DNA of 64,000 nt from Candidatus Eremiobacteria bacterium (GCA_963758295.1 CAVWUU010000004.1:1056001-1120000), one strand, 5' to 3'; shown: positions 41,401-47,400, counted from the first letter of the stretch. Numbers are program-made.

Positions 41401-44400
41401 AGAGCAACACGATGACGCCGGCGAACACATAATGACTCCAGAGCATCCACGCGCCGTACGCAATGAGCGCAATTGACACGACGGTGCCGGGGATTGCGCG
41501 AATGGAGCGCCTCTTTTCTTCCATGATGCCCATTGATTCGTCCAGCTCGCATGCTTGTCTTATGGCGGCAACGTGAGCCGTTGAGACTATGACGGGGGCA
41601 GTGATGAGATGCGCCTGTCCTTCGACGGGCTCAGGATGACGAGCGGAAGATGAAACGCGCCTGTCCTTCGACCAGCTCAGATGACGAGGGCAGTGATGAG
41701 ATGCGCCTGTCCCTCGACGGGCTCAGGATGACGAGGGCAGTGATGAGATGCGCCTGTCCTTCGACCAGCTCAGATGACGAGGGCAGTGATGAGATGCGCC
41801 TGTCCTTCGACCAGCTCAGATGACGAGGGCAGTGATGAGATGCGCCTGTCCTTCGACGGGCTCAGGATGACGAGCGGAAGATGAAACGCGCCTGTCCTTC
41901 GACCAGCTCACATGGCGAGGGAACAAAGAAAAAGAGCCACCGAGAAAACGGTGGCCCTTTTTTGTGTCCGGTGGAGCTAGTAGCGGCCGTTGGAGCTTTC
42001 TTCGTAGCCACGTGACATCGAAAGCGCTTCTTTGGTGACGGCTTGCAGAAACTCTTCGTTGTTTCGCGTTTGTGCCATCTTCTCGAGAATCATCTCGGTG
42101 ATGTCGCCGCTGTTAAGCGCAGCGCTGACGCGGCGAAGCATCCATACCTTGCGCATCTCTTCCGCAGTGAGGAGCAACTCCTCGCGACGCGTGCCCGACC
42201 GCTTGATGTCGACGGCGGGGAAAACACGCGATTCGGCGAGTTTGCGGGTGAGGTTGAGTTCCATGTTGCCGGTGCCTTTGAACTCTTCGAAAATCACGTC
42301 GTCCATCTTCGAGCCGGTCTCCACGAGAGCGGTGCCGATGATGGTGAGCGATCCGCCGCCTTCGATCTTGCGTGCCGCGCCGAAGAAACGCTTCGGTTTG
42401 TGCAGCGACGCCGTATCAAGACCGCCGGAGAGCGTGCGTCCGGAAGTCGGAACGACTTGGTTGTACGCACGGGCGAGACGGGTGATGGAGTCGAGAAGAA
42501 TCACGACGTCCTTGCCCATTTCGACGAGGCGCTTTGCGCGCTCCATCGTGAGTTCGGCTACGGCCGTGTGATTCTCGGGATGCTCGTCGAACGTCGAGGC
42601 GACGACTTCACCGTCGATCGTGCGTTGCATATCCGTTACTTCTTCCGGACGCTCGTCGACGAGCAACGCGATAATGTGCGCTTCCGGATGATTGATCGAG
42701 ATGCCCTGCGCGATATTTTTCAGCAGGGTCGTCTTGCCGGCTTTCGGCGGTGAAACGATTAGCGCGCGCTGACCTTTGCCGATGGGGCAGAACAGGTCGA
42801 TGACACGGGTGGAGAGCTGCGTCGAACGATTTTCGAGGCGAAAACGCTCCTCGGGGAAAATCGGCGTGCCTTTTTCGAAAACCGCGCGGCCCCGAATCGC
42901 TTCGGGATCGTAGCCGTTGACTTTGTCGACGCGAATGAGACCGTAGTACTTTTCGCTCTCTTTGGGGCGGCGAACTTGACCTTCCACCATGTCGGCGCGG
43001 CGCAATTCGAAGCGACGAATTTGCGACTGGCTTACATAGATGTCATCGTTTCCGATAACGTAGCCGCCGCGACGTAGAAAGCCGTAGCCTTCCGGAAGAA
43101 TGTCGAGGATGCCGCTCGCCATCTCCAGACCCGAGCGCTGTTGCTGCCCGGCCAGAATTGCGGCGACGATCTCATCTTTCTTCATCGTCGTCGGGTTGCC
43201 GAGAACGATTTCATGTTCTTGGGCAATCTCGACCAGTTCGGCTTTTTTCTTGCCTTCCAGATCGGCTGCCGTCAACATCGGCGGACCAGTTTCTACAGTA
43301 GGAAACTGATCGTGCTGTTGATACTGATTGTTGAAATGATGACGGCGGCGTGGACGGCGGCGACGACCACCGCTTCCTTGCGGCCCACCATTGGGGTTTG
43401 GGCGATGTTCCGTTTGCAGAGGACTTGTCTCTCTCGTAGAGCCGCACATATGAAACGAGCGATCTCATCACGGGCGAGGCTGCCACGCGCGGATCGATTC
43501 ATATGAACGAGGGGATTGAACGCAGTCACTATATCACACGCAATCTGCACACGACAAGACGCGTTGTAAGCCGACTTACGGTGAAAGCGCCTTCGGACCG
43601 CTAACGAGCGGATTGCCGCGTTCGTAGAAACGAAGCCGGCGCGTTGCAGCGCGCGTGATGCCGATCCGCCGACTGCTGCCGACCGGCGAACCGAGGCTTG
43701 CCGGTTCCGCCACCCATAACCCGCGATCGGCCGGAAGATATGCGCCGTCTAGCGAGCGGTCGATGTCGAGCGCCTGGCACAGGCGGCCCGGGCCGCGGCA
43801 GAGATCGCGGATGACCAACGTGCGGCGACGCATTTGCATGAGCTTGAGGCCCTCGACCGGCTCCAATGCTCGCACAAGGACGCCGGCTCCGATGCCCGCC
43901 GCTTCGCTCCCGACGTTAAAGCAGAAGTTGGCCCCGTAGATGAGGTAAATGTAGGCGTGGAAGGGCTCGCGGAACATTGACTGATTCCTCGGCCGTTCGC
44001 CGATGTAGGAATGCGATGCCGGGTCGTTCGGGGGATAAGCTTCCGTCTCGATTATTCGGCCGGCGGCCAAGCCATCTGCGCTTTCCCGAACGAGCACATA
44101 GCCGATGAGCCGCCGCGCAAGTTCGACCGTTTCAATCGGCAATTTGCTGAAGTCGGCGCGCCGGAGATCCACGGATGCCGCATTATGCGGCAGAATGCAT
44201 CGCGACCTCTGCACGCGCACGTTCAGTAAGGTCGATTTCCGCACACGGCTCGACGGCGTACTTGCGGAAGCGATTGAGCTTGCAGCGCAGGCGGACATAC
44301 GGAAGCACGAGTGGCGGAGGGACGTCACGGTGGTTCGTCAGATCCTCGACGAGCGCCGCATCGGGTAGAGAGAACGCCACATTTTCGACGTTTCTCTCGC

Positions 44401-47400
44401 ACAACAAGCCGGCGACCGATTCCATTGCGGCGTACGCCACTTCGCGTTCCGCCAGGCCGGTGTAGCGTTTTACGCGGAAGGCGGCTCGCACAAGCCGCTC
44501 TCCCGCGCTCGACATAAGGCGCGCATAGACGATGCCGTCGCCGCTAGGGGCGGCTGCATAACCGAGTTGGACTCCGATTGTCTCTCGCGTAGTGGAACGC
44601 ATCATCATCAAGCCTCGTGGCTTTATGATATGCGAACGTATGTTCGTATGTCAAGCCGGGCGGGATTCGCGCTTGTGCCCCGCCGGCTCGGGCTGCAAGA
44701 GGCTCCAGTACAATTCCAGCATTCGGTCCGATTGATCGTCGATTGCGAACCGTCCGGCGGCAATTTTGGCGCGTCGCTGCGCCGCTTCGTCGGGTTCATG
44801 CGGAATCGCACGTAAGGCCGCAGCAAAAGCCTCCGGCGTCGGTACCACGACGCTCCCCACGTCTCTGAGGACGTCGCGGTTCGGGGCGCAGTCCGCGGCA
44901 ATGACGTACGCGCCGGCGGCGAGCGCTTCGGCCTGAACGAGCCCCTGGGTTTCGGTCGTGCTCGGAAAAACGAAGGCGTCGGCGCTTGCATAGAGATTCG
45001 GCAACTGTTCCCGCTGCACGACGCCGAGGAATCGCGTTTGCCGGGCAACACCTATTTGTTGCGCCAGTTCCTGTAACTCTTCACGCTGCGGACCGTCGCC
45101 CGCAATGATGAGGCACAACGAAGGGTCTCCCGCTTTCGCCAGAGCTTGTAGAAGCATTTCGACGTTCTTCTCGCGCGCGAGTCGCGAAACGAAAAGAATC
45201 AATCGTTGATCGTCGCGCACACCGAGCGCCTTGCGCAGCTTTTTATCGCGTTTCCCGTTTCCGAAATGGCCCACGTCGATTCCGCTTGGCATGATCTCGA
45301 GGCGCACTTCCACGCCGATCTCGCGTAAATGATTCGCCATTGCTTGCGTCGGCACGACAACCGCATCAACGAGGTTGCCGAACGTCCGGGTTAATTGAGA
45401 AGCAGCGAATCGCGTTGCATTTGGTTCGAAGGGTACGTAATGCGCGTACATTTCGAGATGCGTATGATACGTATACACGACCGGCATTCCGAAACGGCGC
45501 GCGTAACGCAATCCGAGCCATCCCGTAACGAACGGCGAATGCACATGAATCAGCGACAAGCGCTTCACGATGTTGTTGATGTTTTTGCGGCTTACGAGCG
45601 GCAACGTCAGCCGGTACGGCGTGCGCGTCGGCAACGGAAGCGAAGGCATCCGCAACACCGGACCATCGTTCTCGTCCGCGCCCGGCATGCTGGGGGCGAA
45701 GCAATAGACTTCATGGCCGCGCGTGCGCAAACCGGCGGCGAGCGCATCGACGGCTTCGACGACGCCGTTGACTGCCGGCCGATAAATTTCGGTGAAGAAC
45801 CCGACTCGCAGGTGGTCCACAGGCGGGCTCTTTAGGCGTTAGGTTAGGTCGGCCTGCGACTTGGGAAAACCGTTGTCTATATCCGGGAATCCCGGCCCAA
45901 CACGGCAGGGGACCCCTGCCTCAATTGTGACTTTCAGCATATCCCGGCGTTTCGACGCCCATGATATAGTGCCCGAGTTACCAACGGTCGCTCGCCCTAA
46001 GAGCGGCCAGCAGGCGATCACCCGTCCCACTTGAGGACAAGCCTGCGATCGTTTTGGCGTTTCCACTGGATCCGTCAACCACTACCTCCGTAACTGTTGG
46101 TTCAGCTTACCGGTCATCGTTCGCCCTGCGGGTTTGGCGCGGGCCTTGATGGGAGCTGGGACAGGAAAGGACTACCAGGTTGATAGGACGCGGCCCCCTT
46201 CGGATCAGCCACTTGCTGTCCGTAAGCGTCTTGACCGCCGGTCTAGTCTTAGCCGGCTTTATAACCCACCCGTCGCCCGCGTATGCGGGGAGCGGAGACC
46301 TCCCACAACAACAGACGGTGACACACGTCGTCACGTTCGACTCGCAAGGGACCGTTACGCAACACGTGACGGGCGCCGCTACGGTAGGCGATTTTTTGCG
46401 CGAACGCGGCATCGTGGTCGGTGACCGCGATTATGTCGCGCCCGCACCGGACGTTCCGCTTTCGGACAAACTGACGGTAACGTATCGTCCCGCCGTTCAC
46501 GTAAAAATTGCGCTCGCACACTCCGTTGAGGATGTCGTTAGCAACGCCGAAGATGTCGGCGCATTACTCGAAGAACAAAACATTCGCATCGGTCCACACG
46601 ATCAAGTCGAGCCTTCGCTCGCTGACGAAGTACCTTCCAACGGCACGGTTCGCGTAACGCGGATCGTCACGTGGAATCGCACCGAAAAGCGCGCGATCGA
46701 TGCAGCAACCGAACACCGTCTCGATTTTTCGCTTTCCCCTGGGACGACGAAGGTCGTTTCCAAAGGTGCGGTGGGCGAACGCGACGTGATGGTTCGATTC
46801 ACGCAGCGCGACGACGGCGCAGTACAGAAATCCGTCGTTTCCGCACACGTTGTGAAACGACCGCGCCCGCGCATTATCGCTGAAGGTGTCGGCGAGTACG
46901 CAGCGTTTGCACGCTTCGCGAAACACGGTATTCAACAGACGGCTTATATTGCGGCGTCGGCTCTTGATATGATCGCGACCGCATATACGGCAAACTGTTC
47001 CGGCTGCAGTGGAGTCACCGCAATCGGACGTCCCGCGGGACACGGAATCGTCGCCGTCGATCCGAGCCTCATACCGCTTGGCACGAGACTCTATATTCCA
47101 GGCTACGGCTTGGCGATCGCCGGCGATACCGGCGGTGCAATTCACGGACACCGCATCGATTTGGGATTCAATTCAGCGCACGACGCGCTCATGTTCGGAC
47201 GTCGCGAGGTAGTCGTCTACCGCTTGAAGTAGCTGTCCTCGTCGTGACGCCCGAAGAACCGAAAGAACACCCACGCGCGCTCCTGCAAACGTGGGGTTTG
47301 CGCCCCAAGAAGAGATACGGCCAAAACTTTCTCATGGACGCAGGAGCCGCGCATCGGATCGCGCGACTTTCGCTTAACGGTGCGTCCGCCAATGCGCGCG

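Follow-up and report, generated by a model that had tools for sequence, protein, structure and literature searches.

A gene with a LexA operator in its promoter encodes a candidate RNase HI-fold pseudoenzyme across the Vulcanimicrobiia

In a 64,000-nt stretch of a Candidatus Eremiobacteria genome (hereafter the window, with positions counted from its first letter) we found a small gene, termed gene X, whose product has the fold of RNase HI, appears to have lost the catalytic centre of that enzyme, and is probably produced under LexA (SOS) control. The survey's finding of a LexA-repressed pseudo-nuclease was thereby upheld in its core, with a loss of carboxylates that goes beyond the two sites named there, while a retained third Asp and a functional link to the neighbouring mpg gene did not stand. 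The gene and its surroundings are as follows.

44183..44605, minus strand: gene X, probable RNase HI-fold pseudoenzyme of 140 aa (139-141), based on ORF, database protein, fold and dN/dS
44613..44616, minus strand: GAGG, ribosome-binding-like site by sequence, 7 nt ahead of the second ATG, role predicted
43576..44172, minus strand: mpg (3-methyladenine DNA glycosylase), probably a co-transcribed passenger, 10 nt downstream of X
44651..45820, minus strand: family 4 glycosyltransferase, constant upstream neighbour

The reading frame of gene X was confirmed on the minus strand with a stop codon at 44183-44185 and three consecutive ATG codons at 44608, 44605 and 44602, giving 141, 140 or 139 aa; residues are numbered here from the ATG at 44602. 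An identical 140-aa protein is deposited in the database. The gene is real and conserved: of 232 Vulcanimicrobiia genomes, 222 (about 96%) contained a member of the family, so that the proposed class-wide distribution was borne out and the proposed presence in every genome was not. Two profiles detected no member in 69 genomes from elsewhere in the phylum. At the locus itself, X was clearly lost in genome G169 and probably lost in genome G110. The number of representatives was smaller than the 129 claimed before, with 101 found by a single-protein search at E<=0.001. Among 15 pairs within a genus, dN of X ranged from 0.07 to 0.38 against a dS of at least 0.77, a sign of purifying selection on the gene. 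X of this genome had no match in Pfam or NCBIfam, as previously noted. No copy was found in viral contigs by a single-protein search or among 50,697 phage records with a member of family f3 as query, a viral structure search returned general RNase H matches only, no PADLOC family matched X, and three X members gave only short, chance-level matches to PHROGs (E 0.07-0.39). A weak search among 8000 longer candidates yielded no fused forms; three supposed fusions (P0092, P0094 and P0100) were rejected as they looked, by eye, like frameshifted reads. A literature search across titles and opening lines of abstracts, mostly of open-access papers, returned no paper dealing with X relatives or describing the SOS regulon of the Vulcanimicrobiia.

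The RNase HI fold proposed for X was corroborated by a model with pLDDT 95. Models of one member each of families f1 and f3 had the Halobacterium RNase H1 structure 4e19 as their top VIA match, with Z 14.8 for both, and the structural match of X extended over the whole domain (126 aligned residues, rmsd 2.5 A). Foldseek matched X to archaeal-type RNase HI with E 6e-8, and an ungapped profile match between X and RNase HI spanning helix A, strand 4 and helix B reached E 2.3e-5. One f3 member exceeded the cut-off of RVT_3. The best explanation is that X is a class-specific paralogue of archaeal-type RNase HI; the identity between the two (15-21%) is too low for the duplication to be placed in a tree. 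A GNAT identity was rejected, as the matches (8 of 111 alignment rows, best E 0.0027, PDB E 0.76) were local and contradicted by the fold.

The positions equivalent to the catalytic residues of RNase HI were located as listed here.

44561..44563, minus strand: Gly14, likely catalytic Asp1 site, strand-1 register set by pattern
44435..44437, minus strand: Ala56, catalytic Glu site
44360..44365, minus strand: Pro80 (catalytic Asp3 site) and Asp81 (Ser of the 'DS' site, directly before helix B), from alignments
44213..44221, minus strand: Arg128-Ala-Arg130 in the last helix, around the catalytic Asp4 site, register uncertain

Loss of the Asp1 and Glu sites, already recognized in the survey, was substantiated in a 111-row alignment. 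In strand 1, whose exact register is not fixed by sequence alignment, residues 13-15 were acidic in 0/111 rows and residue 12 in 11/111, and the Glu site in helix A was occupied by Gly in 49 rows, by Ala in 44 and by an acid in one. A third Asp (D82 in the 140-aa numbering, equal to Asp81 here) had been regarded as kept. Four alignments instead place the catalytic Asp at Pro80 and Asp81 at the following Ser, and the supposedly kept residue is a register error of one residue. With Pro80 at the third site, X of this genome therefore appears to keep none of the four canonical carboxylates in register, and because all four and not two seem to be lacking, the pseudo-nuclease reading is more strongly supported than before. 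Across the family the third site (end of strand 4) still holds Asp in 36 and Glu in 13 of 111 rows, family f3 keeps Asp3 in 32 of 35 members, and in no row (0/111) is an acid at this site combined with one at site 1 or 2. The candidate positions for site 4 (126, 127, 128 and 130, the register differing between alignments) are acidic in 15, 4, 2 and 3 of 111 rows, respectively; X of this genome carries Glu127, and residue 128 is Arg or Lys in 102/111. The catalytic acids thus seem to erode stepwise, with one retained in f3 and none in register in X here. The residues that read the hybrid in RNase HI (GNPG, TNN and His) were invariant in 22 true RNase HI proteins of the class and are replaced in X, and 40 of 41 genomes carry, apart from X, a gene for an intact RNase HI. 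Given the lost carboxylates, X itself has presumably lost nuclease activity.

Upstream of gene X we identified a promoter that encloses a LexA operator.

44649..44654, minus strand: -35 hexamer TTGACA, 11/12 matches to the promoter consensus, against 0.3 sites of this quality expected in shuffled sequence
44633..44646, no strand assigned: LexA operator CGAAC-N4-GTTCG in the promoter spacer
44625..44630, minus strand: -10 hexamer TATCAT by sequence, 18-nt spacer

The LexA box reported ahead of X was recovered in exact form in 40 of 40 loci, and in 39 of these it sits between the two hexamers. The sequence TTG[AC]C at -35 and TAnnnT at a spacer of 17 or 18 were likewise each present in 39/40 loci, and in the window the -35 hexamer includes the TGA stop (44651-44653) of the upstream glycosyltransferase gene. 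Exact boxes are rare, with 19 in 3.03 Mb (0.0006 per 100 nt). When a matrix built from lexA operators only was applied genome-wide, the imuA box ranked first and the X box second, and a composite pattern of TTGMC plus box had five sites in five genomes, three at X and two located 2-3 kb before dnaE2. The LexA motif was also found in this genome at imuA-imuB-dnaE2, at a Rv2578c-type radical SAM gene, and at a ligase-associated exonuclease and DEXH helicase with PdeM. As described before, lexA itself carries two to four boxes (at most one mismatch, within 300 nt). This was so here at each of 30 lexA loci, whereas 30 control stretches from inside genes gave 7 matches altogether. As before, lexA was not found in this 82% bin; it was detected in 38 of 41 genomes and in 31/31 of those at least 90% complete. 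A gene for a YneA-like protein with membrane and LysM-like parts (labelled by eye) lies divergent from lexA in 23/23 loci listed. The overlap of operator and promoter supports membership of X in the LexA (SOS) regulon, by which its expression would be induced upon DNA damage.

The glycosyltransferase gene precedes X in 39/40 loci, and the one locus without such a call had just 259 nt of upstream sequence. On the other side, mpg follows within about 60 nt in 28/40 loci, and no terminator-like site was found within 43400-44900. The survey's view that X mostly occurs with mpg holds for these 28 loci and fails for f3, where mpg adjoins X in 0/10 loci and the box is nevertheless kept in 10/10. In G169, conversely, mpg is retained and both gene X and its box are lost. 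The link to mpg is therefore positional and not functional, because X and box persist without mpg and mpg persists without them. Co-occurrence with dnaE2 was uninformative, as G110 has neither gene, G169 has dnaE2 without X, and G007 has X without a dnaE2 match.

Two pointers to a mechanism had been missed in the survey, namely an invariant surface on helix D with Cys107 and a C-terminus that resembles a tmRNA tag.

44267..44317, minus strand: helix D signature L-x-L-x-Y-[VI]-x-L-[RG]-C-x-L-N, candidate partner-binding surface by conservation
44282-44284, minus strand: invariant Cys107 in helix D
44186..44197, minus strand: His-Ser-Ala-Ala C-terminus with tmRNA-like AA end, candidate ClpXP degron

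Helix D is the best-conserved element of X (mean top-residue share 0.69), and its motif was present in 119/119 database matches. Cys107 was found in 111/111 rows, as the sole invariant column of the alignment, and in 35/35 f3 members. True RNase HI proteins have Pro, Arg or variable residues at the equivalents of Leu100, Val103, Cys107 and Asn110. From alignment and helical periodicity this stripe is likely exposed at the surface, and f3 members show apolar or invariant residues around almost the entire helix. The Ala-Ala end occurred in 25/25 f1 loci and in 57/59 f1-like matches, against a background of 28 among 1868 crude ORFs of at least 200 aa in the genome; it is missing from f2 (RSA in 5/5) and from f3. 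The tmRNA tags of five relatives terminate in ALAA (one by ARAGORN, four by translation); ARAGORN found no tmRNA in this bin and one in the five relatives. ClpX is encoded in 5/5 genomes. By analogy, f1 X might be degraded by ClpXP through its Ala-Ala end. In E. coli, ClpXP removes the SOS protein RecN via its C-terminus, according to PMC10714372 and PMC6856136. In the model the tail of X is the end of a helix, which may limit access of the protease.

Taken together, we tentatively favor, at slightly less than an even chance, that X is an SOS pseudoenzyme, tightly repressed and short-lived, whose helix D contacts a protein partner and which serves in damage tolerance. LexA bound inside the promoter would shut X off, DNA damage would release a pulse of the protein, and ClpXP would clear the f1 form by the tmRNA-like end. 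X would have no metal-binding site and would not cleave nucleic acids; with the outward side of helix D (Leu100, Val103, Cys107, Asn110) it would dock on a conserved protein or on a second copy of X. The protein might then transiently assist or restrain damage tolerance at the replication fork, together with ImuA-ImuB-DnaE2. The existence of a partner is deduced, and our guess is that it belongs to the replication or translesion machinery. A more specific version, possible though on the doubtful side, is that X represents a new type of core SOS component, an adaptor or inhibitor timed by proteolysis. Its invariant helix with the Cys would contact a partner from the replisome, the translesion machinery or RNase H and so change how RNA primers, R-loops or stalled forks are dealt with after damage. 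If this were true, the damage-tolerance machinery of an entire class would include a third pseudoenzyme besides ImuA and ImuB.

The conservation of Arg53, Arg128 and Arg130 and the median pI of 9.4, compared to 7.5 for RNase HI, also fit nucleic-acid binding. X might accordingly be a non-cutting binder whose basic former cleft covers hybrids, R-loops or primers after damage and either shields these from active RNase HI or hands them to it. Arg53 (94/111) stands in place of the substrate-contacting Asn50, Arg128 and Arg130 surround site 4, and according to PMC8053090 RNA:DNA hybrids are of importance in UV-irradiated E. coli. We nevertheless regard such a role as unlikely: X has lost every one of the elements specific for hybrids (GNPG loop, TNN motif, His), and the strongest conservation lies on helix D, by inference away from the cleft. 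In PMC8053090, loss of RNase H renders cells UV-sensitive, so hybrid shielding would be harmful there.

New chemistry at Cys107, as acceptor for alkyl groups or abasic sites or as a redox switch in base-excision repair with Mpg, would account for the one invariant column and for the proximity of mpg in most loci. This is quite improbable, however, as f3 keeps both Cys and box without adjacent mpg, and the residue lies in mid-helix, neither N-terminal nor within a PCHR motif, without a conserved His or acid flanking it in sequence. The reactive Cys is N-terminal in SRAP/YedK and within the PCHR motif in Ogt/Ada. We give still less weight to a SulA-like inhibitor of division or growth, an unstable dead fold that would block FtsZ or another essential protein until repair. 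The strongest operator class combined with a candidate degron follows the same logic as SulA, but the class already possesses the YneA-like gene next to lexA, and the sequence of X gives no pointer to FtsZ. It is also very unlikely that X is a nuclease with a rearranged site (Glu54, Asp81, Asp87, Asp124, Glu132) or with residual activity in f3. Conservation of the five ranges from 80 to 108 of 111 rows, f3 mostly keeps Asp3, and the available text of PMC3985635 describes rearranged sites within the RNase H superfamily; the same text, however, has the strand-1 Asp, missing at residues 13-15 of X, conserved in all RNase H-like enzymes. Asp81 and Asp124 moreover lie at helix starts in the model and Asp87 maps to a structural Gln. 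That the box regulates mpg, with X a neutral leader gene or decaying relic, is hardly credible and largely refuted: adjacency, probable co-transcription in 28/40 loci and loss of X in at least one lineage would suit it, but the box tracks X and not mpg, and X is retained class-wide under purifying selection.

Core SOS regulons are generally taken to comprise well-known genes. X is an unnamed gene that falls, like imuA, into the strongest operator class, and it is kept in nearly all genomes searched of a widespread soil class. It also offers a compact test case for the conversion of an enzyme into a regulator, its acids eroding while a new surface turned invariant, and its partner would mark a damage-tolerance step absent from model bacteria; its range is phylogenetically narrow, and the hosts are mostly uncultured. 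ImuA, ImuB and SulA likewise have enzyme folds without activity, are tightly controlled by LexA and work through binding to proteins. X resembles imuA in its operator class in this genome, but those proteins have RecA or Y-polymerase folds, whereas X adopts that of RNase H and is not part of the imu cassette. YpdQ/YpeP and EbsB are, like X, small RNase HI-like proteins that stand alone and occur alongside other RNases H; YpdQ is inactive, Enterococcus EbsB is comparable, and we know of no LexA control of any of them. RNase H family models still recognize them, whereas X here scores with none of these models, which do match the true RNase HI of this genome. YpdQ and YpeP are listed among four B. 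subtilis RNase H enzymes in the accessible portion of PMC5224475. Inactive RNase H-like domains, as treated in PMC3985635 (Prp8, Tex, CENP-B), also keep the fold although their active site is no longer complete. Each of them forms part of a large protein, and Prp8 retains its strand-1 acids, whereas X is a free 15-kDa protein whose structural similarity to RNase HI (Z 14.8) far exceeds that to Prp8 (Z 7.2). The closest relatives are the archaeal-type (short) RNase HI proteins, including, besides 4e19, Sulfolobus RNase HI (3aly), LC11-RNase H1 (3u3g) and the N-terminal domain of Rv2228c (3hst), with RVT_3 as Pfam family. X shares the whole-domain fold with them and coexists with an intact RNase HI; it differs from them in lacking GNPG, TNN and His and, in this genome, apparently all in-register carboxylates, and in having the LexA operator, the invariant Cys stripe of helix D and, in f1, the Ala-Ala end. 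As a side observation, an Armatimonadota RVT_3 cluster was listed in the atlas at 0.90-0.92.

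Gene X, the minus-strand gene with an RNase H fold in the window, most probably encodes a LexA-repressed and catalytically dead paralogue of RNase HI. Its open reading frame begins with three consecutive ATGs, which gives 139-141 aa, and residues are numbered here from the ATG at 44602. The gene and its neighbours are:

44651-45820, glycosyltransferase of family 4, flanking gene X
ending at 44183, minus strand, gene X
43576-44172, mpg, flanking gene X on the other side and followed by rho

A database record holds an identical protein of 140 aa, and database sources label X 'hypothetical protein'. 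Pfam, NCBIfam and PADLOC gave no match to X, matches in PHROG were at chance level only, and a literature search over titles and abstract openings returned nothing on the family. X is a real and well-supported case of a known fold in a new form. The model of X (mean pLDDT 95) had the RNase H domain of Rv2228c and Halobacterium RNase H1 (E 6e-8) as top Foldseek matches, and VIA-align paired it with 4e19 (Z 14.8, rmsd 2.5 A, 126 residues), followed by other short RNases HI. Among the three families of the class Vulcanimicrobiia (f1, to which the window protein belongs, f2 and f3), a model from f3 gave the same VIA-align outcome, and one f3 member exceeds the RVT_3 cut-off by sequence alone.

A true RNase HI is also encoded in 40 of the 41 related genomes, with Asp13, Glu53, Asp77 and Asp127 invariant (22 aligned of 30 fetched loci). 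Profile alignments of X were gapless from helix A through helix B and placed Ala56 on the catalytic Glu and Pro80 on the third catalytic Asp. The third Asp that the survey's finding described as kept is Asp81, which falls on the Ser after the catalytic position and precedes helix B in the model. For residue counts we used a profile of 111 rows (A2), in which the window protein was joined by 35 of the 39 other loci and by 75 of the 101 database representatives; partial, frameshifted and near-duplicate rows were omitted. Acids were found in none of these rows at residues 13-15, in one at the second catalytic site and in 49 at the third, and no A2 row combines an acid at the third site with one at the first or second. 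The f3 profile of 35 rows has Asp at the third site in 32. Sequence does not fix the register of strand 1 or that of the last helix. At four candidate positions for the fourth site, one of them Arg128, acids occur in 15, 4, 2 and 3 of the 111 rows; the window protein has Glu127, a residue that is not conserved. According to an excerpt of PMC3985635, every RNase H-like enzyme retains the Asp of strand 1, which makes nuclease activity of X unlikely. X does not qualify as an active type 1 RNase H.

The promoter of X (TTGACA, 18-nt spacer, TATCAT) matches the consensus at 11 of 12 positions, against 0.3 such sites expected in shuffles, and CGAACATACGTTCG sits in its spacer. An exact LexA-type operator, CGAAC-N4-GTTCG (the box), was present in all 40 X loci; in 39 of them the -35 element lies 0-2 nt before the box, and in 39 a -10 element follows at a spacer of 17 or 18. 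The window's own genome (3.03 Mb) contains 19 exact boxes. The lexA gene, found in 38 of 41 genomes and not found in the 82% bin studied here, has 2-4 boxes of this kind ahead of it at all 30 loci. With a matrix built from lexA loci only, the box of imuA-imuB-dnaE2 ranked first in the whole genome and that of X second. Taken together, these operator, promoter, lexA-box, matrix-rank and genome data make control of X by LexA very likely, and X would be a new addition to the class's SOS regulon. The -35 hexamer (44649-44654) includes the glycosyltransferase stop codon and no terminator-like site separates the two genes, so transcripts could run on beyond the LexA site.

Boxes also precede a Rv2578c-type radical SAM gene, a ligase-associated exonuclease, a DEXH helicase with PdeM, and an ORF just before recA. 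In the last case the ORF encodes 308 aa (FtsY-like by eye), has an exact box 28 nt ahead of it and recA directly after it (L104, G000:C4:743636), and recA may be LexA-controlled via this ORF. The C-termini of the radical SAM protein (QLSLLA, L107:756-1640), exonuclease (QLSLF, L109:1387-2409) and helicase (QLRFGS, L110:2555-5215) resemble sliding-clamp binding motifs. A weaker box (rank 9) stands 61 nt ahead of a B12-dependent ribonucleotide reductase ORF (L111, G000:C4:190049); with only 625 aa this ORF is roughly half as long as the best family model and may be split or frameshifted.

Matches to a single X protein were found in 40 of 41 related genomes, and across the phylum A2 matched in 222 of 301 genomes (f1 200/207, f2 3/3, f3 19/22), with none among the 69 genomes from the other classes. 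A4, a 35-row f3 profile, likewise gave 0/69 outside the class and recovered none of the ten A2 misses. Among these, G240 retains box and gene start at a contig end, and in G038, G283 and G304 a contig end cuts the glycosyltransferase. X is probably lost in G110, whose closest glycosyltransferase match reaches just 37% identity; four further misses are G264, G267, G273 and G308. In G169 the glycosyltransferase directly abuts mpg, a clean loss of X with promoter and box (L120, G169:C2:322669-326787). Scanning a single genome for each species yielded 17 X loci (13 titles naming the phylum, 4 with other depositor labels), and all 17 have the glycosyltransferase upstream and the box. They are not independent and probably share members with the loci described before. 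Counts include unpublished genomes (G004, G013, G024 and G036 among the 40 loci, nine among the 301), and no claim is based on them alone. The homologue in G037 (L034) is about 234 aa long; its tail looks unrelated and probably reflects a frameshift close to the gene end, and this sequence was omitted from alignments.

mpg directly follows X in 28 of 40 loci (f1 23/25, f2 5/5, f3 0/10). This adjacency, together with the absence of a terminator-like site between the two in the window's genome, makes their co-transcription there likely. The box travels with X, not with mpg: f3 retains it without mpg, and G169, which still has mpg, lexA and dnaE2, lacks both it and X. In at least nine genomes the true RNase HI gene and dnaE2 are about 7-28 kb apart, which probably reflects no more than conserved gene order.

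ImuA, ImuB and SulA are SOS pseudoenzymes, which X would resemble in mode of action; it lies outside their families. We tentatively favour X as a short-lived protein-binding accessory or brake that would act in damage tolerance. Conservation is strongest in helix D and its flank (98-112). All 119 database matches carry the motif Y-[VIL]-x-x-x-C-x-L-N, and the helix of f3 has the sequence L-x-L-x-Y-[IV]-x-L-G-C-K-L-N, eight of whose columns do not vary across 35 rows. Leu98, Tyr102, Leu105 and Leu109 align with core positions of RNase HI. Leu100, Val103, Cys107 and Asn110, spaced i, i+3, i+7, i+10, align with its Pro98, Arg101 and two variable positions, and we infer from the alignment an outward stripe that may now be a binding surface. 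As to a short life, ClpX recognises C-terminal Ala-Ala. X of f1 has this ending at all 25 loci and in 57 of 59 database matches, against 28 of 1868 crude genome ORFs. Five of five genomes carry clpX, and tmRNA tags end in ALAA in 5 of 5 relatives (ANSEYALAA, ANNEYALAA, ANNQYALAA; L114-L118; ARAGORN finds one of the five genes that Rfam finds). Excerpts of PMC10714372 and PMC6856136 describe ClpXP removing the SOS protein RecN via its C terminus. Against such a degron, X of f2 ends in RSA, and f3 ends vary and are non-polar.

It is unlikely, though it ranks next, that X binds nucleic acid without cutting; the old cleft carries conserved Arg53, Arg128 and Arg130, and median pI is 9.4. According to an excerpt of PMC8053090, E. 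coli becomes UV-sensitive when RNase H is lost; this ties RNA:DNA hybrids to damage recovery and counts against simple hybrid shielding. Chemistry at Cys107, the sole invariant column in A2, seems rather improbable. Slightly less credible still is a SulA-like inhibitor: a division role is weakened by a YneA-like gene (membrane segment and LysM-like domain, by eye) that lies divergent from lexA at all 23 loci viewed, of 30 fetched. This gene (92-103 aa, LysM-like domain C-terminal) lies about 130-260 nt upstream of lexA (L074-L103), and the class apparently follows the lexA-yneA layout of Gram-positive bacteria. A rearranged nuclease is more doubtful again. That X is a passenger is scarcely credible; dN was 0.07-0.38 and dS at least 0.77 in all 15 pairs from six genus members.
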